This document shows, piece after piece, positions 5,546-24,988 of a DNA stretch of 32,000 bases (position 1 is the first letter of the stretch; each line of letters starts with the position of its first letter). The stretch is taken from NCBI RefSeq assembly GCF_947495845.1, contig NZ_CANMAO010000014.1:57596-89595 (forward strand), in the 5' to 3' direction. The position numbers and the translations under genes are program-made. The stretch comes from an uncultured Endozoicomonas sp. (GTDB lineage Bacteria > Pseudomonadota > Gammaproteobacteria > Pseudomonadales > Endozoicomonadaceae). The notes below the pieces were generated by a model that was not told where the DNA came from, searched no databases, and saw only the letters and a list, made by a program, of their open reading frames with translations.

Positions 5546-5567
5546 CAGGGCTTAACATTAAGCCCTG
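5546..5567 (+). terminator. Hairpin just downstream of the Fe-ADH gene (possible terminator)
   Basis: cagggcttaa (5546-5555) pairs with ttaagccctg (5558-5567), an almost perfect palindrome starting 16 nt after the stop. There is no U-tract. Confidence 0.35.
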
Positions 5568-5991: not shown

Positions 5992-6963
5992 TCATTTTAA
6001 TAGATTGCGTATGTCTTCTTCGAGGCGGGTATCAAGCATAATTGCTTCCTGCTCAAGCCAGATTTCTTGCTCGACCAGGCTATTTAATAAGGGATGATTT
6101 CGGTAATGCTTGCTGTATGGGCAAATGTCAGTTCGCCACAAAGTCTTGCCGGCTTTTATTTTCTGAGCAAAGTGAGTCTGGTAGTCACTCCACCACTCAG
6201 GAATCAAGAGCTTGATCGGTTTATCAAGGGAACGAGCCAGCTGTGCTGCAATATCCAGCCCTTTTTGATCCAGATCGCCAAAATGGCACCACTGAAAATT
6301 TTGCAACGCAGATAAAAACCGTAAAGTAAGTTTGTAATTGTTACCCGGAACAAAAATGGCCATCACTGGCTTGGGCAAAGGTAGATGTTGCCAGGCTCCA
6401 GCATTCTCCACAGTGATTATCTGGACGGGTTCATCGCACTGAATAGACGTCAGTTGGCTTAGTGCTTTTTCATTAAGAATAATCGCATCCGCAAAATCCA
6501 TTTCTTCCAGGCAATCGATCACTCTCGAGGAAAAGTGTAACTGGCATGAGGTTCTGGTGCGTAACTGGATTATTTCACTATCCAGTGTTTCCAGATGAGT
6601 GTCGATTGAGGTTGTCTTTTTGGAATGCTCACCCCAAACGGCATTTTTTACCCGACTGTGCAGTGTTACTGGCAGCGGTGAGACCAGATGTTTTTTGAGG
6701 AATTCTTCTCTGGTTTCGTCGGGCTCAAAAGCAGTCTGCCATTGTTCGCCGTAGTGCGAATGCATATACGACAACAGGCTATTACGATCAGCTTTTGATC
6801 TCAGAGCAAACTGGTTATTACTCTGCCGCTGAGTGCGTTGTTCTACCCACTCGGCTTCGATCAGAAAGCCCAGAAAAGACGGCTTTTGCCGCCCTTTCTG
6901 ACAGTAACAATCATCAAGTAATGCCAATGCAATTGTAATGGCGTCTTCTGGTGGAAATTTCAC
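5992..6963 (-). CDS. jetD: JetD/MksG-like Toprim-domain nuclease subunit of a Wadjet/MksBEFG system
   Basis: 323 aa. The GTG start overlaps the jetC stop (GTGA). The C-terminal half carries a Toprim-type acidic signature: E186 in IITVENAGAW, D230/D232 in HFGDLDQKGLDI, and a terminal WLEQE motif, as in DUF2220/JetD proteins. It is the last gene of the MukFEB-like operon. Confidence 0.8.
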   Translation of the reverse strand: MKFPPEDAITIALALLDDCYCQKGRQKPSFLGFLIEAEWVEQRTQRQSNNQFALRSKADRNSLLSYMHSHYGEQWQTAFEPDETREEFLKKHLVSPLPVTLHSRVKNAVWGEHSKKTTSIDTHLETLDSEIIQLRTRTSCQLHFSSRVIDCLEEMDFADAIILNEKALSQLTSIQCDEPVQIITVENAGAWQHLPLPKPVMAIFVPGNNYKLTLRFLSALQNFQWCHFGDLDQKGLDIAAQLARSLDKPIKLLIPEWWSDYQTHFAQKIKAGKTLWRTDICPYSKHYRNHPLLNSLVEQEIWLEQEAIMLDTRLEEDIRNLLK

Positions 6964-9900
6964 GACTCACTGGCCTGCGGTAAACGCCCTTTCACACCAG
7001 AGAAAATCACATGTTCATAGGGTTCCATCAGGCGAACCATGCGATAAGTCACGCCATTTTTGGGTAGCACATTGTCTGGAGCTCCAACCATTAGCTGCAG
7101 GGACTGGTGCAGACAAAGCTCCTCCAGCGTTGCCAGAGCTTTGGCATCGAGGCGAGCGGCCTCATCCAGGAATAATAAACGACTTGCGGCGTGTCCTTTG
7201 CCATCCCGGTTATCTGTAGCGACTTCCCAGGAGTGCAGCACCATGGTGAGAATCGCCAGACCTGTACCAATGGCCTCACCAGTAGAGAGATTGGTGGGGT
7301 TAGCCGGTTCATAATGCTGGCTGCCAGCACGTTGAATCAGAATGTTCAGACGAATGTATTCTCTGTAATCCAGCAGTTTGTCACCAACAATTGTGCCGCC
7401 GGTTTCTTTTTTGAACAGATATTCAAGGGCTGCTTCAACCGTCATATCCGGTTTGCGGAACAGGTCTGCGTAAAACTCCTGCTGCAGAGCGTCGAGAATT
7501 TTCTGGAAACTGTCGATGACTTCCAACTCAATTTTGATGGCGCGGATCGTACCAAAATGCACACTGGACAAGGCGGCGTTAAGTTGGTGAATTTGCTTTC
7601 GCTCTTTGTTGATCTTGCGCTGAATGTTCTGACCAAGGCTGTCGGATTCGGCGAGGAAACGCTGCTCAGCATCTTTCAATAAGGTTTCCAGGCGTGTCAG
7701 TCGTTCTTCCAATAACTCCAGATTTTTCCTTGGGTCATCGGACTGGTAGAGCGTTTTGTCTATGCGCTGAGCCAGATGATTCTGGGCATCAATAAAGCAT
7801 TGGAAAAGTCCGGGCAAATGCGTACTGCTGGTCTTCTCAAGCTGTTCCAACAGGCCGCTGTTCTCGCTTTCCAGCACTTTGATCAAGGCTGCTCGGGCAT
7901 CGGCCAGCCCACCCCGCAGGAAATCATCTTCTTGATTCAGCAGGTGATGGGTATTCAGTCGCTGCTGTTGTCCGGACTGCTCCGCCAGTTTCAGGATTTC
8001 TTGATAATTGCTGGTAGCCAGTTGTGCTTTGGGTTCCAGATTATGGATGTCAGCAATGGTATCGCTCAGGCGCTCTTCAAGCTTCTCGCGTTCAGACTTT
8101 GTGGTAATCTGCGTTTCTTTGTGCTGATTGAGTTCCTGATATAGCGCGTTCTTGTCCGACTTGATACGGGCAAGCTGAGCTTCGCACTCTTCTTTAAGGC
8201 CTGGCGTATAAGTCAGCGGGATATCAGCGATCTGTCGGTTAAACTCCGATTGCTGATGCTGATTCTGCTCAATACGGGTATTGATGGTATTGATGTTGAG
8301 ATCAAGGGCGTTGCACTGTTTTCTCAACTGCTCCACATCCTGACTTTGTCGTTTCTGCGATTGTTTTTTCGCCTCGAACTCTTCCTGCAACTGATTCTGC
8401 AGGTTCTCTTTTTCTTCCTGTCGAGTCACTGAACCAGCAAAGCGCAGGTTAGGAGACTGCTCGATGGCGGTATTCAGCAGGTCTTTCTGTCGGTTGTACT
8501 GGCTTATTTGTTTTTTCAAGGCGTCCAGCTCGGCACGCAGAGCATCCAGGTTTTCCACCGGCGGTTGATCAATGTAGAGCCGATGGTCGTTTAATTGATG
8601 AATGGTTTGCTCATGGCTGCTTAGCCAGGCTTTTGCATCATTGGCCAGTTGTAACTGTTCAGCGATGGCTTCCAGAGATTCCCGCTTCGGGTCATCGTTC
8701 AGCAACCAGGCATTGGATTGCCATTGCTCAAGACAGCGAACCACATCGTTCACTACCTTATACTGCTGCTGCGAGCTAGTGAGTGACAGTGCCAGAGATT
8801 CTGCCTGCTCTGCCAAAGCATCCAGCTGGGCTGTACACTCTTCCACAGGCGGTTCTTGAGTACCAAGCCATTGGCTTTTGGCAGAGAGCTGATCAAGACG
8901 TTGCTGAAGCTTTTCAAGCTGTCTTTTATTGATCGCCTGCTCCTGAAGCGTATCGAGCAGTTGCTCTTCCTGTTCACGAAGACGGGCCTGCTCTTTTTCA
9001 CGGGCCAGTCGGCCAATGGTCGGGAACTCGGGTTCTCGGCTTAACCGCGCCATATTACTGGTCATTTCTACCAGTACATTGCCGTCTTCTTTCTGGCCAA
9101 TGGGGGCGTTAAGATAGTCTTCATCTGCAAAGGATTGCCCCGGCTCACCACTGAGCAGCCAGACGTGATCTGGCCGGTCATTTTCTTCCCGGATAATGTT
9201 GGCCGCTTTGGCGATGTCCCGAACCTGAATAGCATGACGCAGCGGGCCAAATTTTGCTTCCAGCCAGGCTGCTTCTTCCAGAGAGATATCGTCGTTATCA
9301 AAGTAATCGCTGATGACCACACCGCCGGTCATTTCAGCCAGCTTCTGCAGTTGTTGCAGCTCTCTGGAGGCTTTGATTTCAAGCTGTGCCATGCGTACCC
9401 GCAAGGTTTCCAGTTCCTTTGCCAATTGCACGCTGGCTTCCAGATTCTCCTGTTGTTCCTGACTGATTTGCTGACGTAACGCAACGAAGTCATTATGATT
9501 GTTCAGCGCAGTATCAGAACGGTTGGCAAGAATCTCCTGGCTGAGTTTGCGGGCATCAAACCAGTGAATATGATCTTTGCGAGCCTGATCCAGTGTGGAT
9601 TGAACCTGATCCTGTTGTCTGACAGTTTGCTGCGCCTGATCTTTTAGTCGCTCAATGTTCTCGAAGGTTTGCTGCTGCTCATGGTTAGCATGGTGTAGCT
9701 GTTCATTCCAGCTGGCTTCATCTTTTACAACCTGTTGCCAGTTGTCCGGCAGTGCGGCCAGTGCTTGCTGAACCTTCTTTAGCTGCATTTTTTCTTGCTG
9801 GCGTTGCTGCTGCTGCTTGACCAGGGTAGTTATTTGCAGGGCTAATGTCGTTTGTTGCTGGTGGTGCTGACGCCAGAAATCGGTACGTGCCGCCGCCTGA

Positions 9901-11372
9901 CTCATTGTTACATCGTTATCACCAAGAGAAGCCAGTAAGGATAGTGTTGCATCGAAGTGGCTGCGGATTTTTTCAGCCTGCTCCAGCAGTGGCAGTTGAC
10001 GATAATACTGTTCGGAAGTGGTGCCAAGGTTGTTCAGCAGCTCACCCATCAGCGGACCGAGTTTATCCGCAGTCACTTCTACCTGATCGAAGCTTTCCTG
10101 AACATCGGTAAGCGCTCGAATAGCTGCCAGATAAAGACCGGCTTTGCGGGCTTCTTCTGAGTAAGCTTTCTCGGCACTGGTTAACTGATCCACCAACTGG
10201 GAAATATCATCATTCAGGCGTTCAAGCTCAGCAGCTTGTTCCTCGTACTGACAATCCAGCAGTACCTTTTTCCCGGTTTCTTCTTCTCGCTGTTGCAGGT
10301 GGTTGCTTTGTTCGTTAGAGAGTCTGCCCAGGTCCGTATGCAGTCGTTCAAGATCTTTCGACTGATCGACACGTTCGTCAGCATCGTCTTGCTGGCTGGA
10401 CAGCTCTTCTTTCTGGCTTTCCAGTGTCAGCAGACGGGCATCAATAGCTAACAATTGTTGTCTATAAGTCTCCAGCTGTTGTTGCGCCAGCCTTTCCTGC
10501 TGTTGTTTCTCTTTCAGTTCGGCCTGTAACGTCTGCTGTTGCTTATCGGACCAGGCCAGCACATGTTCACCCAGAGCGTAGCTGGATTCGAGAATATCGC
10601 GGATCACCTTGCGATCATTGCGGGTTTTTGCGATCTGGTGGCGGGTGCGCTGGGTTTCCTGCAGCGCGTTTTGCATGGAGCTAATGGACTCGCGCACTTT
10701 ATTATCTGCCGGTAATAGATAATCCCGCAGACCTTTCTGTAGCTCGGCAGATAACCCACCATAAAGACTGGTTTCGAGCATTCGGTAGTAACGCTGGCGA
10801 TCCTGACTGTTCTCCATACGGCGGGGAATGATCCGCTGTTCAAACTGCCAGCTCATGTATTGGGCTGTAGTATCGAAACGGTGGAGCTCTCCATTTAACA
10901 TAGTGACCTGATTTTTCAGGGCTTTGCCATCAAGAGGCTCATAACGATTTTGTTCGCCGGGCAGCGGTTTCATTACTACGTCCCGCACTGCAATATCGGC
11001 GTCTATGCCGGTGATGGCATAAAGTTTTAATTCGACTTTGGGTTGCGTCAGGCGACGTAGTCGCACTACGGTAATTGCCCGACTACCGTCGTGCAGTTCG
11101 TAATCCACCAGACTGTAGCAGGTACCGGCACCGATACGGCCCCAGATACCGTTGTCACTGCTGTCTTTGCCGCTGTCGGAATTGTTGCGTAAACGAATCA
11201 GGCGATTATCAGGCACACGGTTAATGAGCAGTGCACCCATAATGGTGGTTTTTCCGGCACCGTTATGACCAATGAGGTTACTCATTAATGGGTGCATATC
11301 CAGGGTTTTGAAGAAGATGCCCCGGAAGTTGACCATGGTCAGGCTGCGAATCTGGGTTCTTTTCTGGCTCAT
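6960..11372 (-). CDS. jetC: MukB-like SMC-family ATPase (JetC/MksB)
   Basis: 1470 aa. Walker A GHNGAGKTT. ETSLYGGLSAELQKGLRDYLLP closely matches my recollection of E. coli MukB [22 protein letters not shown]. The arms are long, Q/E-rich coiled coils. The central hinge-like block ...FGPLRHAIQVRD...VWLLSGEPGQSF... is colinear with MukB YGPSRHAIVVPD...LYLIEGDPQSF. Signature motif LSTGEAIGTG and Walker B LLFLDEAARLD are present. The ATG overlaps the jetB stop (ATGA). Confidence 0.9.
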   Translation of the reverse strand: MSQKRTQIRSLTMVNFRGIFFKTLDMHPLMSNLIGHNGAGKTTIMGALLINRVPDNRLIRLRNNSDSGKDSSDNGIWGRIGAGTCYSLVDYELHDGSRAITVVRLRRLTQPKVELKLYAITGIDADIAVRDVVMKPLPGEQNRYEPLDGKALKNQVTMLNGELHRFDTTAQYMSWQFEQRIIPRRMENSQDRQRYYRMLETSLYGGLSAELQKGLRDYLLPADNKVRESISSMQNALQETQRTRHQIAKTRNDRKVIRDILESSYALGEHVLAWSDKQQQTLQAELKEKQQQERLAQQQLETYRQQLLAIDARLLTLESQKEELSSQQDDADERVDQSKDLERLHTDLGRLSNEQSNHLQQREEETGKKVLLDCQYEEQAAELERLNDDISQLVDQLTSAEKAYSEEARKAGLYLAAIRALTDVQESFDQVEVTADKLGPLMGELLNNLGTTSEQYYRQLPLLEQAEKIRSHFDATLSLLASLGDNDVTMSQAAARTDFWRQHHQQQTTLALQITTLVKQQQQRQQEKMQLKKVQQALAALPDNWQQVVKDEASWNEQLHHANHEQQQTFENIERLKDQAQQTVRQQDQVQSTLDQARKDHIHWFDARKLSQEILANRSDTALNNHNDFVALRQQISQEQQENLEASVQLAKELETLRVRMAQLEIKASRELQQLQKLAEMTGGVVISDYFDNDDISLEEAAWLEAKFGPLRHAIQVRDIAKAANIIREENDRPDHVWLLSGEPGQSFADEDYLNAPIGQKEDGNVLVEMTSNMARLSREPEFPTIGRLAREKEQARLREQEEQLLDTLQEQAINKRQLEKLQQRLDQLSAKSQWLGTQEPPVEECTAQLDALAEQAESLALSLTSSQQQYKVVNDVVRCLEQWQSNAWLLNDDPKRESLEAIAEQLQLANDAKAWLSSHEQTIHQLNDHRLYIDQPPVENLDALRAELDALKKQISQYNRQKDLLNTAIEQSPNLRFAGSVTRQEEKENLQNQLQEEFEAKKQSQKRQSQDVEQLRKQCNALDLNINTINTRIEQNQHQQSEFNRQIADIPLTYTPGLKEECEAQLARIKSDKNALYQELNQHKETQITTKSEREKLEERLSDTIADIHNLEPKAQLATSNYQEILKLAEQSGQQQRLNTHHLLNQEDDFLRGGLADARAALIKVLESENSGLLEQLEKTSSTHLPGLFQCFIDAQNHLAQRIDKTLYQSDDPRKNLELLEERLTRLETLLKDAEQRFLAESDSLGQNIQRKINKERKQIHQLNAALSSVHFGTIRAIKIELEVIDSFQKILDALQQEFYADLFRKPDMTVEAALEYLFKKETGGTIVGDKLLDYREYIRLNILIQRAGSQHYEPANPTNLSTGEAIGTGLAILTMVLHSWEVATDNRDGKGHAASRLLFLDEAARLDAKALATLEELCLHQSLQLMVGAPDNVLPKNGVTYRMVRLMEPYEHVIFSGVKGRLPQASES

Positions 11373-12127
11373 GCTTCCTGATCCTCCTCTACCGCAGGCG
11401 CTATTACCACAGTCTCTTTTACCAATGTTTCTCCAACTGAGGCTGCTAACGGGTCAACTTCTTCAGAAGTCGAACTTTCCTCATCCACATCAAAACTGAT
11501 ATAGCCATCCCGGACCAGCTGTTCCATTACTTCTCTGGTGGCTTCTGCGGAAGAAGTGGTAGAGCGCACCGGATCGATAAATCGCATTAACGGTGCCTGA
11601 GTTTGCAGCCGATTTGCCTGATTGCCTTCAAGCCTGATCATGCCAAGCCTTGCCAACTGTCGTATAGAACTGCGCAGAGTATCCATAGCTTTATCACGGT
11701 CTGCCTGGGTTTCAATTTTTTTGCGTGCCAGTAATTGGCAAAGGTGATCGTTTTCCAAAAGCAAGCGAAGTCGTTCATACACCGCATCGGCTGATATCCA
11801 GCCACTGCCTTCCAGTTGCTCTGGGTCCAGATGAAACATCGCCAGAACCTGGCCAACGACCATGGTTAGCTCATCGAGTTTTCGGGAGCGTATCAGGCTT
11901 TTCCCCCCGGTACCCGGGCGCAGGTAATAGTAGGATTCTGGCGCGTGAATCAGGTCGCAGCCAAATCGGAGGTAATATTCCACCAGTAACGGGAGGCCAT
12001 CGTGAATCACATTGAATAACCGATGTTGGCGGGCATCGATGTGTTCACCCCGACGCAGCCGGGCATCCAGTTCCGGAAAGCATTCATCATTGATCAGATC
12101 GGCGATCTGCTGGTAAGGGTTATCCAT
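11369..12127 (-). CDS. jetB: MukE-like subunit (JetB/MksE)
   Basis: I chose the ATG at 12127 (MDNPYQQIADL...), which overlaps the jetA stop (ATGGATAA). The track's longer start at 12229 would overlap jetA by 110 nt. ...LIHAPESYYYLRPG...LDELTMVVGQVLAMFHLDPE... is colinear with MukE ...LIRAPEGFFYLRPR...[20 protein letters not shown]. The tail is acidic. Confidence 0.85.
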   Translation of the reverse strand: MDNPYQQIADLINDECFPELDARLRRGEHIDARQHRLFNVIHDGLPLLVEYYLRFGCDLIHAPESYYYLRPGTGGKSLIRSRKLDELTMVVGQVLAMFHLDPEQLEGSGWISADAVYERLRLLLENDHLCQLLARKKIETQADRDKAMDTLRSSIRQLARLGMIRLEGNQANRLQTQAPLMRFIDPVRSTTSSAEATREVMEQLVRDGYISFDVDEESSTSEEVDPLAASVGETLVKETVVIAPAVEEDQEA

Positions 12128-13472
12128 CGACAAGGTGTTTTTCTCGTGTGGGCTGTGGTGAGTTAGGGTTAAGGCGCAGGCGTTCCACCGAAAAGTCGGG
12201 CACAATTTCCTGCCACTGATGATCAGCAATGTGCTGCTGATGTTGCTGGTGGCCCATTTCCGTCAGCGCACTGAATAGCCAGCCCGCGACCATGTGCAGT
12301 TTTTCCATTGGCCATTGGCTGGCGAGTACTTCCAGTGCCTGCTCATAGGCTGGTAGCTCACCGGTTTGTTCCTGTTGTTTAACCAGCCAGGCTTTTACCT
12401 GCTGTTTTAGGGCATCAAAATCTTCAATGGAGCTTGGGTCGCCTTCTTCATGAATTACCTGCGCCAAGTTCTCTTTTGGCTGCGGCGGTTCAATATCCCG
12501 CAGGCGCATCAAGGGCTCTTCGTGGGTGTAGCGAAGATACCAGCGTTGTTCTCTGTAGTTCCGAATGCCTTCACGCACTCGCTCCATCAGTGCTTTTCGT
12601 TCATCCATGGTGACAAATTGGCGAAGGTATTGGTGTACCCGATGATGGAATCCTTCCCAGTGATTCATCCGCTCACCGCTCCAGTGCTCTATGCGGTCGA
12701 GATGCTGTTCCAGACGGATGATGCTGTTGATGGCATTCATCCGTTGAGCCTTTTCGCAATAACGGGCAATGGTCTCAAGAAGCGATCGCAGTTGGTGGCA
12801 GGAGGCTAATAGCAATCGCTGCAAGTCCTGCAGATGGGACTGTGTACTGGTGAGCAACTGCTCACACTGGCTGATAGAGTTTTGCCAATCCTGCTTCAGC
12901 AGTTCAACCACTTCCCGACGGGTTTGAATGGCTTCCTGATCCAGCTGTCGCTGGCGATGGTCGATGGAGGTGACCAGCTGATTAACAGTAATATCCAGCG
13001 GGGCTTCAATTTGTAGCTTCCAGAAAGGCTCATTACCACCCTGTTCAGCAGAGTCACGAATCTCCTGGAGATGGCTGGCTACTGTCATGAACAGTGTGCT
13101 CAAGGCTTCTTTAGACGCCTCCATACCAACACAAATGGAATCCACGATTTGTTCGGAGAGTGGCGTGATCAGGTAGGCGTGATTTCTCTGTTCGCCACCT
13201 TCCAGGCAAATGAGCAAGTGCTGCTGCAACAGACGACGAATCACATCATTACAGCGCTTTGAGGCATCGTTACAATTGTCATCCAGTCGTGCTTTCTCAA
13301 CGCTCTGAAAGACGACGTGGAGTTCTTCTTCGCTAAACTCTGGCCGTGATTCTGTGGCTCTCCAGTAACGCAAAGCTGTGAGATACGCGAGATCAGCCGG
13401 CTGCAGTTTCAAACTGATGCCCTGGGTCAGAATGGTGCTGACTAATGACGGGATGCTCTTCGATGCTGGCAA
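12120..13472 (-). CDS. jetA: MukF-like kleisin subunit (JetA/MksF)
   Basis: 450 aa from a TTG start, 5 nt after GGAG. ...SAEQGGNEPFWKLQIEAPLDITVNQLVTSIDHRQRQLD...LLKQDWQNSISQCEQLLTSTQSHLQDLQ is colinear with E. coli MukF ...[38 protein letters not shown]...[28 protein letters not shown] (recalled from memory). Confidence 0.85.
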   Translation of the reverse strand: MPASKSIPSLVSTILTQGISLKLQPADLAYLTALRYWRATESRPEFSEEELHVVFQSVEKARLDDNCNDASKRCNDVIRRLLQQHLLICLEGGEQRNHAYLITPLSEQIVDSICVGMEASKEALSTLFMTVASHLQEIRDSAEQGGNEPFWKLQIEAPLDITVNQLVTSIDHRQRQLDQEAIQTRREVVELLKQDWQNSISQCEQLLTSTQSHLQDLQRLLLASCHQLRSLLETIARYCEKAQRMNAINSIIRLEQHLDRIEHWSGERMNHWEGFHHRVHQYLRQFVTMDERKALMERVREGIRNYREQRWYLRYTHEEPLMRLRDIEPPQPKENLAQVIHEEGDPSSIEDFDALKQQVKAWLVKQQEQTGELPAYEQALEVLASQWPMEKLHMVAGWLFSALTEMGHQQHQQHIADHQWQEIVPDFSVERLRLNPNSPQPTREKHLVDG

Positions 13473-13531
13473 GCTTGCTCCAATAGTTATCAGGGCATTA
13501 AACAGGGATGGCGTTGGAGGATGTCTGCATC

Positions 13532-13560
13532 ATTAAACAGACTCTGCATATAAGTGCCAA
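13532..13560 (-). promoter_or_regulatory. Candidate sigma-70 promoter of the jetABCD operon
   Basis: On the minus strand: TTGGCA (13560-13555), 17 nt spacer, TTTAAT (13537-13532), about 60 nt upstream of the TTG start. The -10 lies inside one of two copies of a 10-bp direct repeat, CATTAAACAG on the plus strand (13496-13505 and 13531-13540). Confidence 0.25.
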
Positions 13561-13736
13561 ATTCATTATGAAAAAAACCATGGTTAGCGTAAAGCAAAAC
13601 ACAGGTCATTTGTATGACAATGAATACCTAACGAAAGTTCTACTTTTTTTGTGCATATTTTGTGGTGGGAGACAGGGAGAAGCAAACAAGCTTGTGGAAT
13701 GCATACTCTATGCTGAAATTGAGACTATAGTATCGC

Positions 13737-13772
13737 AAAAAGGTCTTAGTCATATTTATGACCAAGGCCTTT
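13737..13772 (-). terminator. Rho-independent terminator of dps
   Basis: A 15-bp stem (13739-13753 with 13758-13772, one mismatch and one wobble on the minus-strand RNA) with a 4-nt loop. It runs into a U-run on the minus strand (plus-strand aaaaa 13737-13741) and starts about 20 nt after the dps stop. Confidence 0.6.
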
Positions 13773-13793
13773 CCTATTTCGACAAATGTTGAG

Positions 13794-14222
13794 TTACAAG
13801 CTGGACTTCAACATCCACAACTCTTTTTCGATGAAACCAATCTGCTCATCAGAATACGCACGGGTAATGTCATCGGTGTGCTCATCAGCCGAGATTGCCT
13901 TGAAGTGCATCTGCATTTCCTGAAAATCGCTGATGATGGACTTCAGGATATACTCAACACTGAATTCCGTTTTCACTTCTTCTTCAATCGTGGCAGTACC
14001 CAGAATGGTTTTCAGAGTGACCAGTGGCATGCCGTCTAATTGCAGAATACGTTCTGCAACATCGTCGTACATAGTGGCGAACAGGGTGTAATACTCTTCC
14101 GTTTTGGCGTGCAGTTGGAAGAAGGCTGGGCCTTTTACGTTCCAGTGATAGTTATGCAGTTTGGTGAACAGGACGTTGGCATTAGCCATCACGACGTTCA
14201 GTCTTTCAATAGTGCTGGACAT
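13794..14222 (-). CDS. dps: Dps family DNA-protection / mini-ferritin protein
   Basis: 142 aa. KLHNYHWNVKGPAFFQLHAKTEEYY...DDVAERILQLDG matches the Dps ferroxidase-site pattern HWNV.G..F..LH...E.....D..AERI..LGG. Confidence 0.9.
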   Translation of the reverse strand: MSSTIERLNVVMANANVLFTKLHNYHWNVKGPAFFQLHAKTEEYYTLFATMYDDVAERILQLDGMPLVTLKTILGTATIEEEVKTEFSVEYILKSIISDFQEMQMHFKAISADEHTDDITRAYSDEQIGFIEKELWMLKSSL

Positions 14223-19878: not shown

Positions 19879-21108
19879 ATGAGTATTACTTTGCAGAATG
19901 ATACAGTCATCCTCACTGGATTTGACCGCTTCCGGTATAAGCCTCTGTCAATCCCAAAAAACTTGTGGAAACACCGAAAAATCTACTTAAACCTCACTCA
20001 GGTTGAGAGTTATATCGAGAAGCATCCCAAGACTAGGCTAACCAAAAAATTACAGAGTATGGTTGTCAGACCCAGCCTTAAGATTCATCTGTCTGAGATA
20101 AGTTTTGATAAATGGAAAATAGTAGACGGCAATTTCCCTTGGGAAAGCACCACTTTGCTCAAGCAATTTATCAATGCCTTTTCAAAAGAGTTGGAGGGTG
20201 GAAAACTAAGCTTGAATAAGGTTGTTCAGCGGCTGCAATTATTCAATCTTTTGACTGTGCAATTCGAGAATGAAGTATGGGATATGCAAGATATTCATGA
20301 TCGCTATACCGGTCTTCAGGTTGCTGAAATATTGCGCGGTAATCTGGTAAAGGCAACCGAGAAAGTGGTAAACCAGATTAATGCATTGTCTTTTGGTTAT
20401 TCAGGGAAGAAGGCCGCTATCAACTCTCAAAAATTACATGACCTTGTCGACCTATGTAATCCCGGTAGAGCTATTAAGCAGATGCGCTCGTTCATCAATC
20501 GTCAAAAAATCGAAGAGTTTCAGAAAGAGAGTGATCCAAAGTTCAAGGAATTTATGTTGCGCCGATGGGTGAGCGACTATGGTTCAGTACGACGTTATGA
20601 AGTCTTGGCTAAATCACTATCAAGCAATTCCAATGAAATTTTACGTAATGCTGGAGATCGCTGGTTGAAAAAATCAGCTAAAGCGTTTGACTATGTGCAT
20701 AACCAAATTTTCCCAGAGGCATTGTTCGAAACCAGGGAAAATGATCAAAAGGAGAGTAACTTTGTTCGGGTAGAGGAAGAAGGCAAGACAAAGTGGATTA
20801 AAGCGCAGGACGACACAATAAAAGGAAAAAAATTGGAAGTTGATTTTCGCGATACTGCGGGCATGAAAGCTCAAAGAGATCAAGAAATTGCGGATATGGA
20901 TATCGGTTCATCATGGCAGTACAAGTTTATTTATAGATCATTGATGCAGTACTGTACAGAGGCAGGCTATAAAGAGGGAGAGTTGTATAAAATCCTTATT
21001 GAGCGGCTAAGTTTGTTAAAGGGTAAAGATACAAATACTCAGACAGCAAAGCTTTTCAGTGATTTTAAGAACGCTTTGCAATCCTTAACGGGGGCTAAAC
21101 CATCATGA
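19879..21108 (+). CDS. Hypothetical protein (409 aa) with no motif I recognise. The gene is A+T-rich.
   Basis: A long uninterrupted ORF in a segment that by eye is clearly more A+T-rich than its flanks. The product is Lys/Glu-rich and probably helical, with no TM helix, signal peptide or catalytic motif that I could identify. Confidence 0.55.
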   Translation: MSITLQNDTVILTGFDRFRYKPLSIPKNLWKHRKIYLNLTQVESYIEKHPKTRLTKKLQSMVVRPSLKIHLSEISFDKWKIVDGNFPWESTTLLKQFINAFSKELEGGKLSLNKVVQRLQLFNLLTVQFENEVWDMQDIHDRYTGLQVAEILRGNLVKATEKVVNQINALSFGYSGKKAAINSQKLHDLVDLCNPGRAIKQMRSFINRQKIEEFQKESDPKFKEFMLRRWVSDYGSVRRYEVLAKSLSSNSNEILRNAGDRWLKKSAKAFDYVHNQIFPEALFETRENDQKESNFVRVEEEGKTKWIKAQDDTIKGKKLEVDFRDTAGMKAQRDQEIADMDIGSSWQYKFIYRSLMQYCTEAGYKEGELYKILIERLSLLKGKDTNTQTAKLFSDFKNALQSLTGAKPS

Positions 21109-23254: not shown

Positions 23255-24988
23255 TTAGAAAAGGAAATAGCGCTGAGCAAGGGGCACAACCTCAAGCGGT
23301 TCACAGGTGAGCAGCTCACCATTAGCTCGCACTTCATAGGTTTCCGGATCCACTTCCATCTCTGGCTGCCATGTATTCAGTACCATGTCTTTCTTTTTTA
23401 CTGTGCGAGTGCCTTTCACTGCGGAGAGCGTTTTCTTCAAACCCAGCTTTTCACCAATCTCGGCATCCAGAGCGGCCTTGGAAACAAACGACAGTGAAGT
23501 AGCGGCTGCAGCCTGTCCCATGGCCGCAAACATCGGCCGGTAGTGAACGGGTTGCGGTGTTGGAATAGATGCGTTTGGATCTCCCATCGGTGCTGTTGCA
23601 ATCGCACCACCTTTCAGAACCAGAGAGGGTTTGGCGCCAAAGAAAGCGGGTTTCCATAACACCAGATCCGCCAGTTTGCCCGGTTCAATAGAGCCCACCT
23701 CATGGGCGATACCGTGAGTCAGTGCAGGATTGATTGTGTATTTAGCGACGTAACGACGGGCACGAAAGTTATCCACTTCCGCCATTGCATCTTCAGGCAA
23801 TAAACCACGCTGGACTTTCATTTTGTGGGCGGTCTGCCAGGTTCTGCTGATCACTTCGCCGACTCGGCCCATGGCCTGGGAGTCGGAAGCGATCATGCTG
23901 AATGCACCAAGGTCATGAAGAATGTCTTCTGCGGCAATGGTTTCACGGCGAATTCGTGAGTCTGCAAAAGCGACGTCTTCAGGAATATTTGGATCAAGAT
24001 GATGGCAGACCATCAGCATATCCAGATGTTCATCAACGGTATTGATGGTGTAAGGTCTTGTGGGATTAGTAGACGATGGCAGTACATAGCTTTCACCGCA
24101 GGCCTTGATAATGTCCGGAGCATGGCCACCGCCAGCGCCTTCGGTGTGATAGGTATGGATAACCCGTCCTTTGAAAGCGGCCAGAGTGTCTTCCACAAAG
24201 CCTGATTCATTCAATGTATCGGTATGAATTGCTACCTGAATGTCGTATTTCTCGGCAACGGTTAGACAACAGTCGATGGAGGCCGGCGTTGTGCCCCAGT
24301 CTTCATGAAGTTTTAACCCCATAGCGCCGGCTTGCACTTGCTCTTCCAGTGCTTCCGGCAAACTACCGTTGCCCTTACCCAGAAAGCCAATGTTCATTGG
24401 CAAATTGTCAACCGCTTTCAACATTGTGCTGATATGCCAGCTGCCCGGAGTACAAGTCGTGGCGTTGGTACCCGTCGCTGGGCCTGTGCCACCGCCGAGC
24501 ATGGTGGTGACGCCAGACGTCAGCGCTTCGTCAATTTGTTGAGGGCAAATAAAATGTATGTGAGCATCAACACCGCCAGCAGTCACGATCTGCCCTTCCC
24601 CTGCAATCACCTCGGTGCCAGGACCGATAATGATATCCACACCTTCCTGCACATCCGGATTACCGGCTTTACCAATGCGCTCGATGCGTCCGCCTTTGAT
24701 GCCAATGTCGGCTTTTACAATGCCCCAATGGTCAAGAATCAAGGCATTGGTGATGACAGTATCCACGACAAACGCTTCTGGTTGCTGGCTCTGTCCCATA
24801 CCATCGCGAATCACTTTTCCGCCGCCAAATTTCACTTCATCGCCATACACGGTGAAATCTTTCTCAGGGCTGATAAATAACTCTGTATCACCAAGGCGAA
24901 CTTTGTCGTTTATGGTTGGACCAAACATATCCACATAGGTTTGCCGATCCATCAGGGTTTTTGTCGTGATGTCATGGTCGTTTTTCAT
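23255..24988 (-). CDS. ureC: Urease alpha subunit UreC
   Basis: 577 aa. [20 protein letters not shown] (carbamylated Lys), AIHTDTLNE and MVCHHLD motifs are present. The ATG overlaps the ureB stop (ATGA). An internal Met at 24952 is an alternative start. Confidence 0.97.

Follow-up and report, generated by a model that had tools for sequence, protein, structure and literature searches.

A MukBEF-lineage MksBEFG operon with a coupled short JetD/MksG-type gene in Endozoicomonas

In the JetABCD/MksBEFG (Wadjet) systems, loop extrusion recognises circular DNA, and a Toprim nuclease is then licensed to cut it (PMC10586767). MukBEF is said to be without MksG/JetD (Burmann et al., 2025; PMC7617805). 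Its origin has been called unclear, and that it arose from a Wadjet system by domestication, made permanent when the nuclease was lost, stands as a hypothesis only (PMC10586767; bioRxiv 10.1101/2025.03.10.642339). Here we describe a four-gene operon within a 32,000-nucleotide (nt) stretch of DNA from an uncultured Endozoicomonas sp. (the window), in which genes for a MukF-like kleisin (F), a MukE-like KITE protein (E) and a MukB-like SMC ATPase (B) are followed by a directly coupled, short mksG/jetD-like gene (G). Judged by its sequences, the operon is the branch of a long-arm, short-G Wadjet subgroup that lies closest to canonical MukBEF, and it appears to be an extant transitional form between defence systems and housekeeping condensins.

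The published maximum-likelihood tree pairs the MukB of E. montiporae with that of E. coli (support 100), and the sister clade holds proteins of Sorangium, Bradymonas, Massilia, Sulfurifustis and Plasticicumulans (Burmann et al., 2025; PMC7617805). The accompanying table lists these five as ‘FEBG’, with an MksB of 1445-1482 amino acids (aa) and an MksG of 322-340 aa, and gives E. montiporae, its sole Endozoicomonas representative, as ‘FEB’ (PMC7617805). Our own inspection of the E. montiporae locus shows this listing to be correct for that strain. Sampling E. montiporae alone made the whole MukBEF clade look nuclease-free.

The operon and its products

The four genes run co-directionally on the minus strand, with open reading frames (ORFs) exactly where an earlier note on this DNA, made from the sequence alone, had placed the operon (5992-13472; Table 1). 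The same note described overlapping stop and start codons, and all three junctions read exactly so: mukF and mukE share ATGGATAA (in context cgATGGATAAcc), while the mukE/mukB overlap, read directly, is ATGA (gcATGAgc) and the mukB/G overlap GTGA (tcGTGAaa). A Shine-Dalgarno sequence, GGAG, lies 5 nt before the TTG start of mukF. Further upstream, a sigma-70-like TTTACG-17-CATAAT gives weak evidence of a promoter, and beyond the end of G stands a hairpin with a nine-pair stem, five of the pairs G-C, and then a stretch rich in T; shuffled sequence gives consensus matches to promoters and terminators at least as often as the real one. The first three products fit E. coli MukF, MukE and MukB (440, 234 and 1486 aa) in size, as had been stated, and the peptide blocks quoted in support of that likeness are all present in the translations.

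The fourth protein had been taken for a Toprim-type JetD/MksG protein, a call that would have fallen had no Toprim or JetD fold been found. Profiles and model both point to that fold. Residues 168-313 of G match Pfam JetD_C (8e-11), and the protein matches the PADLOC JetD1 model (6e-13); residues 1-150 have no Pfam match, that is, no N-terminal JetD domain family of the DUF3322 type. We built an AlphaFold (AF2) model of G from a 19-sequence alignment, with a mean predicted local distance difference test score (pLDDT) of 81.6. A Foldseek search of the PDB with this model ranks C. glutamicum MksG first (8b7f, 1e-6), then P. aeruginosa JetD (7til, 3e-6) and topoisomerase VI-A, in alignments that cover both domains (390-408 columns, probability 1.0). 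A first, shallower model gave the same ranking. The N-terminal 75 residues form a winged helix in the model, although the N-terminal part is less confident (pLDDT 49-90), and this helix is consistent with the CAP domain described for JetD (PMC10586767). The motifs ENxGA (E186), PG(N/R/W)(N/D), HFGDLDxxG (D230, D232) and WxEQE (E304) are invariant across the G proteins that we assembled from Endozoicomonadaceae, the metagenomic clade, Aeromonas and the Burkholderia plasmid; the residue numbers E186 and D230 had been given correctly before. On the profiles and the model, G is a short protein of the JetD/MksG type, probably with a CAP+Toprim fold, and a predicted nuclease.

The three structural subunits match MukBEF models throughout. 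In F, the Pfam winged-helix (WHD), M and C domains of MukF all score over cut-off, and a PDB sequence search finds MukF at 2e-43 over residues 4-411; the protein is 86% identical to its E. elysicola orthologue. E matches Pfam MukE (4e-36) and MksE (7e-34), and MukE in the PDB (9e-29). B matches Pfam MukB_N (3e-54) and MukB_hinge (2e-28), exceeds the NCBIfam cut-off for a MukB equivalog (827 bits over 699) and aligns with MukB in the PDB over residues 5-1462 (5e-130); its Walker A, signature and Walker B motifs are all intact. None of the three has a JetA, JetB or JetC match in the PDB sequence search, which returns solely MukF, MukE and MukB, at full length. A comparison with hidden Markov models of both families had been proposed earlier: the Pfam MukF, MukE and MukB models match, and the Wadjet I-III models of PADLOC-DB v2 yield no JetA match for F and none, JetB included, for E. 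B matches JetC1 marginally (3e-7, 27 bits), in its C-terminal part only. The assignments to the MukF, MukE, MukB and JetD families are far beyond chance.

The earlier note went too far in calling these subunits close to MukBEF proper. B is only ~25% identical to E. coli MukB, no higher than its identity to a plasmid MksB (24%), and its relationship with canonical MukB is therefore deep. F and E fall under the NCBIfam equivalog cut-offs (239.5 bits against 407 for MukF and 124.4 against 250 for MukE), and on these scores both can be classed as MukF and MukE family members without curated equivalog status. K1114 of E. coli MukB, which we take to be the AcpP-contact lysine, is not conserved in B, and at what are presumably the ParC-contact acidic residues the acidic hinge patches are partly conserved. 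This comparison of hinge and AcpP-contact residues is too weak to choose between a housekeeping and a defence role.

Phylogeny, distribution and loss of the nuclease gene

In a neighbour-joining (NJ) tree of MukB rooted on the Burkholderia plasmid protein, Endozoicomonadaceae form a clade with bootstrap 100 that joins a metagenomic FEBG lineage (L008/L009; bootstrap 99), and the two together are sister to the canonical MukB of E. coli, Vibrionaceae and Aeromonas (bootstrap 89). The tree of G mirrors that of B, with weak support at its deep nodes. An unclassified or intermediate lineage had been suspected from the first, and this placement, together with the failure of PADLOC to see F and E, bears the suspicion out. 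Arms of full MukB length together with a short G are not special to this locus, being a feature of the whole sister MksBEFG group.

Every Endozoicomonadaceae locus that we examined carries the mukFEB core. Most carry G as well; three do not have it, and in one it has shrunk to a 40-aa remnant. MukB homologues at 76% down to 48% identity come from many Endozoicomonas species and Kistimonas, after which there is a gap to ~25-30%. G overlaps or adjoins mukB in E. elysicola, E. acroporae, a record named Salinisphaera sp. G21_0, Kistimonas scapharcae (L017) and the metagenomic contigs L003, L004/L005 and L007, with overlap or close spacing in L008 too, and the 4-nt overlap with the mukB stop recurs in L003, L004, L007 and L017. 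In Ca. E. cretensis the stretch examined covers G only, not mukB, and G is present there. Endozoicomonas sp. 8E (P0178) and 2B-B (P0322) also encode G, these names coming from the exhaustive profile search described below. Scanning genome contigs with the G alignment under very strict peptide patterns gave five close Endozoicomonas loci.

E. montiporae CL-33 has an intact mukFEB without G and insertion sequence (IS) elements on both sides; E. gorgoniicola likewise has mukFEB without G, with a group II intron reverse transcriptase and an IS element downstream; and another Endozoicomonas assembly keeps mukFEB intact with G absent. These three G-less operons form one MukB subclade (NJ bootstrap 69). 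Strain ONNA2, which belongs to the window’s own subclade, retains just the remnant of G downstream of mukB. The G-less subclade and the ONNA2 remnant lie in different parts of the tree, and G was therefore lost at least twice; FEB was never lost in the sample. The ratio of non-synonymous to synonymous divergence (dN/dS) is 0.11-0.35 for G, indicating purifying selection, and 0.03-0.11 for the more constrained F, E and B.

Three side observations concern these relatives. Between K. scapharcae (L017) and the metagenomic contig L007, synonymous divergence is 0.16 for G and 0.53-0.74 for the adjacent F, E and B genes, possibly through recombination or codon-usage differences. The Salinisphaera sp. 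G21_0 record (L012) probably carries a wrong label or contaminating sequence: its G shares 95% identity with that of E. acroporae, and its F, E and B are about as similar to the window proteins as are their E. acroporae counterparts. In metagenomic Endozoicomonadaceae-like contigs, FEBG is bordered by genes that encode effector domains of a eukaryote-like kind (IpgD phosphatase, UCH deubiquitinase, Ser/Thr kinase, IcsB), and such neighbours fit host-associated bacteria.

E. elysicola has these four genes bounded by the same iron-dependent alcohol dehydrogenase (Fe-ADH) gene on one side and the same phosphatase-ArsR-ACR3 block on the other, and glmS is close by. This shared gene order shows the locus to be syntenic and vertically inherited, at least within the subclade. 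GC content over 6-13.5 kb is 0.46-0.52, with no composition anomaly, the operon’s neighbours in the window have no PADLOC match, and a megablast of the operon against plasmids found no match. We considered whether the operon might have been acquired horizontally in recent times or might belong to a defence island, and rejected both, given the synteny with E. elysicola, the unremarkable GC content and the PADLOC-negative neighbours.

To survey the short G more widely, we searched 1.84 billion cluster representatives exhaustively with a profile; only 413 relatives emerged at E <= 1e-3, nearly all of 300-345 aa. A metagenome scan gave 80 loci, and most of those with enough upstream DNA have a MukB/MksB-like C-terminal head 6-150 nt before G. 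More than ten lineages and dozens of metagenomic loci keep G next to a MukB-like gene. The Burkholderia pyrrocinia plasmid pBPJTT (880 kb; L019) carries one such block, beside a SAVED-domain gene and an IS21 element, encoding a MukF-like protein, MukE, MukB (1473 aa) and a DUF2220 protein (326 aa); the prokaryotic genome annotation pipeline (PGAP) names the second and third MukE and MukB, and the PADLOC JetA and JetB models match neither F nor E of the plasmid. On this evidence, MukB-length arms and a short G mark a whole under-annotated Wadjet subgroup.

Aeromonas offers a further arrangement. A tblastn search with G found a match in an Aeromonas caviae chromosome that is filed among plasmids, and the 341-aa ORF (L018) is 33% identical to the window’s G and preserves every Toprim motif. 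A canonical mukB lies 7.2 kb upstream of it, on the same strand; this record may contain a second G-like locus, which was looked for and not located. In A. veronii and Aeromonas sp. A04, variable genes separate mukFEB from a G that lies 4.4 and 7.5 kb further downstream. Several metagenomic contigs of Aeromonas type show the same detached G, and annotated homologues of the short G occur across the genus. Between the Aeromonas genomes compared, identity is 98-100% over the C-terminal 330 residues of MukB but only 50-77% for G, whose dN/dS is 0.18-0.35. The pattern fits an ancestral FEBG operon from which G was uncoupled yet retained, and suggests that Aeromonas G may be evolving like a conflict gene. 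Motilimonas eburnea (Alteromonadales; P0179) also encodes a short G, as found in the exhaustive profile search.

Proposed function and alternatives

With moderate confidence, we favour the reading that the window operon is a MukBEF-lineage MksBEFG that restricts small circular DNA, and that its FEB core has an additional, nuclease-independent and probably chromosomal role. Every component that the mechanism known from JetABCD/MksBEFG calls for is present in the operon and intact. The MukF-, MukE- and MukB-like subunits would form an SMC-kleisin-KITE loop-extruding motor, assumed to be a dimer of dimers by analogy with MukBEF and JetABC. By analogy with JetABCD/MksBEFG, this motor would load on DNA and extrude loops, and on a small circular molecule the stalled motor would license a dimer of the G nuclease to cut, so that plasmids are restricted. 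The FEB core would also act without the nuclease, most plausibly in organising the chromosome. What the sequences show directly is how the genes are arranged and coupled, their families and predicted folds, the intact ATPase and Toprim motifs, purifying selection, the place in the trees and the pattern of presence and absence of G. We infer complex formation, loop extrusion, circular-DNA cleavage and plasmid restriction in the window operon by analogy with these systems; the chromosomal role is suggested because FEB stays intact after G is lost, F, E and B are strongly constrained and the syntenic context is not one of defence.

Several points weigh against this reading. G is dispensable within the family, because it was lost at least twice there, and the chromosomal role of FEB is deduced from its retention. 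By gene content, the locus lies outside any defence island. Neither the single G sequence nor a 9-sequence profile finds a PDB match by sequence, and the link to JetD/MksG therefore rests on the Pfam and PADLOC profiles and the predicted fold. In the Foldseek alignments the template modelling (TM) scores are only ~0.4, because the domain orientations differ, and the N-terminal sequences of JetD that make the known type I contacts are not detectably conserved in G. One homologue (P0008) has N for the first D of the DxD motif (NLD, not DLD).

The same evidence could be read as that of a housekeeping complex alone, in which these genes encode the MukBEF condensin of Endozoicomonadaceae and G is a hold-over or serves chromosome maintenance, for example on entangled or stalled DNA. 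The presence of mukFEB in every family locus seen, the dispensability of G, the non-defence syntenic setting, the tighter constraint on F, E and B and the NCBIfam score of B as a MukB equivalog all agree with this view. We nevertheless think it unlikely. All Toprim acidic residues of G are preserved, and the gene evolves under purifying selection, in lineages only ~30% identical to one another, and it is therefore no decaying relic where it is present; the nearest structural relatives of its model are plasmid-restriction nucleases; the nearest outgroup operons include the plasmid-borne copy with its SAVED-domain and IS21 neighbours; and the far faster divergence of G than of MukB in Aeromonas is typical of conflict genes.

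It is equally improbable, in our estimation, that the operon serves defence alone, as a Wadjet-type plasmid-restriction system that resembles MukBEF while Smc-ScpAB folds the chromosome and the FEB-only relatives are disabled or MksBEF-like back-ups. Endozoicomonas does lie outside the orders classically said to swap Smc-ScpAB for MukBEF (PMC10586767). The sister group consists of FEBG operons, and the low identity of B to E. coli MukB and the lack of conservation of the presumed AcpP-contact lysine point the same way. Defence systems are, however, usually patchy and mobile, whereas FEB occurs in every family member sampled, at 76-48% identity, and its reading frames stay intact even after G is lost, under the low dN/dS noted above. 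Moreover, JetABC without JetD fails to restrict plasmids (PMC10586767), and long retention of FEB alone therefore needs another function.

That G is a coincidental neighbour, functionally unrelated to mukFEB, is very improbable: its detachment from mukB in Aeromonas shows that physical coupling is not obligatory, but the 4-nt overlap with the mukB stop in the window and four other loci, the fact that G directly follows a MukB/MksB-like gene in most metagenomic loci and the congruent G and B trees all speak against it.

Beyond the favoured reading of a MukBEF-lineage MksBEFG, we put forward a bolder possibility, and only tentatively: that the Endozoicomonadaceae MukBEF-G acts as the principal SMC complex for folding the chromosome and at the same time cleaves plasmids as an active Wadjet, that loss of the nuclease did not happen at the base of the MukBEF clade, and that the canonical MukBEF of Aeromonas, and perhaps of some Alteromonadales, still works with a short MksG encoded in trans. 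If true, MukBEF-G would be an extant halfway stage on the path by which a defence system was domesticated into MukBEF. The locus is useful for testing the hypothesis that MukBEF arose by Wadjet domestication, as one lineage holds a natural series of coupled FEBG (the window, E. elysicola, Kistimonas), decayed G (ONNA2) and FEB only (E. montiporae, E. gorgoniicola), to which Aeromonas adds a canonical MukBEF with a detached yet conserved G. In the culturable E. elysicola, E. montiporae and Aeromonas, it becomes testable whether one SMC complex both folds the chromosome and restricts plasmids, what holds the nuclease off the chromosome and what loss of the nuclease changes. Current defence-finder models miss the whole long-arm Wadjet group.

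Wadjet/MksBEFG as a kind of system is already known, and long-arm FEBG operons are present in a published supplement. In the searchable literature we found nothing on the condensins of Endozoicomonas or on MksG in Aeromonas, no account of a MukBEF clade that keeps the nuclease in most Endozoicomonadaceae with repeated loss of G and retention of FEB, and none of a conserved, detached G in a genus with canonical MukBEF.

Genomic neighbourhood and comparison with known systems

The MukB-like protein and G are 100% identical to NCBI entries of uncultured Endozoicomonas sp. (Gammaproteobacteria, Oceanospirillales, Endozoicomonadaceae), where G is already labelled as JetD-domain-containing. The other genes of the window include glmS, a GST-family gene, the Fe-ADH gene, a Dps-like gene, an ArsR/ACR3/ArsP cluster, a urease operon and a branched-chain amino-acid/urea-type ABC transporter, and this remainder looks like ordinary chromosome. 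The Dps-like DNA-protection gene scores under the NCBIfam cut-off and is absent at the syntenic E. elysicola locus, which has an isochorismatase-family gene on that side. An Rfam match to the Helicobacter 5′ ureB sRNA (94 bits), antisense to the 5′ part of the urease alpha-subunit gene, is probably conserved urease coding sequence and not a real sRNA. Between the arsenic-resistance cluster and the urease operon lies a 409-aa ORF without a Pfam, NCBIfam or PADLOC match, in the window’s lowest-GC kilobase (0.40 at 20001-21000).

Table 1. Positions of the operon, its signals and the other features discussed, in the window and in related loci.
Feature	Locus	Position	Strand	Remarks
mukF-like kleisin gene	Window	12120..13472	-	450 aa, TTG start
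mukE-like KITE gene	Window	11369..12127	-	252 aa from ATG at 12127; ORF spans 11369-12229
mukB-like SMC ATPase gene	Window	6960..11372	-	1470 aa, ATG overlaps mukE stop
Short mksG/jetD-like gene (G)	Window	5992..6963	-	323 aa, GTG start overlaps mukB stop
Intergenic region upstream of mukF, probable operon promoter region	Window	13473..13793	-	Sole sizeable non-coding gap in the four-gene block
Sigma-70-like sequence	Window	13593-13565		Upstream of mukF
Shine-Dalgarno sequence of mukF	Window	13481-13478		
Terminator-like hairpin	Window	5546..5567	-	Between end of G and convergent Fe-ADH gene; consensus match
Dps-like gene	Window	13794-14222	-	Directly upstream of mukF
409-aa ORF	Window	19879-21108	+	
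Urease alpha-subunit gene	Window	23255-24988	-	
Rfam match to Helicobacter 5′ ureB sRNA	Window	24528-24809	+	
IS elements beside E. montiporae CL-33 mukFEB	L006	6178-7242, 14749-16149		
Reverse transcriptase and IS element, E. gorgoniicola	L015	10606-14717		
G remnant, strain ONNA2	L014	7266-7361		
Effector-domain genes flanking FEBG	L003; L004; L007	10987-17957; 1-3021, 12749-15652; 2280-3680		
pBPJTT FEBG block	L019	2281-9675		
G of A. caviae	L018	8737-9762		
G of A. veronii and Aeromonas sp. A04	L021/L022; L023	10001-11005; 10001-10999		

Set against the MukBEF of E. coli and Photorhabdus (PDB 7NYW, 9GM6), the window operon has the same F-E-B order, subunit lengths and every Pfam domain including the MukB hinge, along with full-length alignment to the solved subunits, intact ATPase motifs and a sister-clade placement. 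It differs in a 5-7 residue insertion in the hinge, in the presumed AcpP-contact lysine, which is not conserved, in the absence of cmoM upstream and in its host order, Oceanospirillales. Above all, it differs in its coupled MksG/JetD-type gene, which MukBEF is stated to be without (PMC7617805).

The operon shares the four-gene SMC-kleisin-KITE-Toprim architecture of type I Wadjet JetABCD (E. coli GF4-3, P. aeruginosa PA14) and of C. glutamicum MksBEFG, and its G has JetD_C and JetD1 matches and a probable CAP+Toprim fold, the model being closest to MksG and JetD. In contrast to type I Wadjet, its SMC protein is 1470 aa long, compared to a JetC1 model length of 1097, its G has 323 aa, compared to 368-374 residues in the solved chains of JetD and MksG, F and E are unmatched by JetA and JetB, and G is without the N-terminal JetD family. 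The window operon has the co-directional kleisin, KITE and SMC genes with a flanking Toprim gene that are expected of Wadjet/MksBEFG in the broad sense, and falls outside the PADLOC definition of Wadjet I-III, which calls for JetA-JetD of one type.

The long-arm ‘FEBG’ MksBEFG operons (Sorangium cellulosum So ce56, Bradymonas, Massilia, Sulfurifustis, Plasticicumulans; pBPJTT; Data S1 of Burmann et al., 2025) are alike in having a long MksB followed directly by a short MksG, invariant G motifs and MukB/MukE names from PGAP. They differ in forming an outgroup to the Endozoicomonas and canonical MukB proteins taken together, and their B and G are 22-25% identical to those of the window. The pBPJTT copy is plasmid-borne beside its SAVED gene and IS21, whereas the window copy is chromosomal, syntenic and family-wide.

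Finally, P. aeruginosa MksBEF, a nuclease-less Wadjet derivative, has an FEB core that acts on the chromosome without a nuclease (PMC10586767), and the G-less Endozoicomonas operons are alike in this composition. P. aeruginosa MksBEF differs in that it coexists with Smc-ScpAB and lies outside the MukBEF clade, whereas most relatives of the window operon have kept the nuclease gene.

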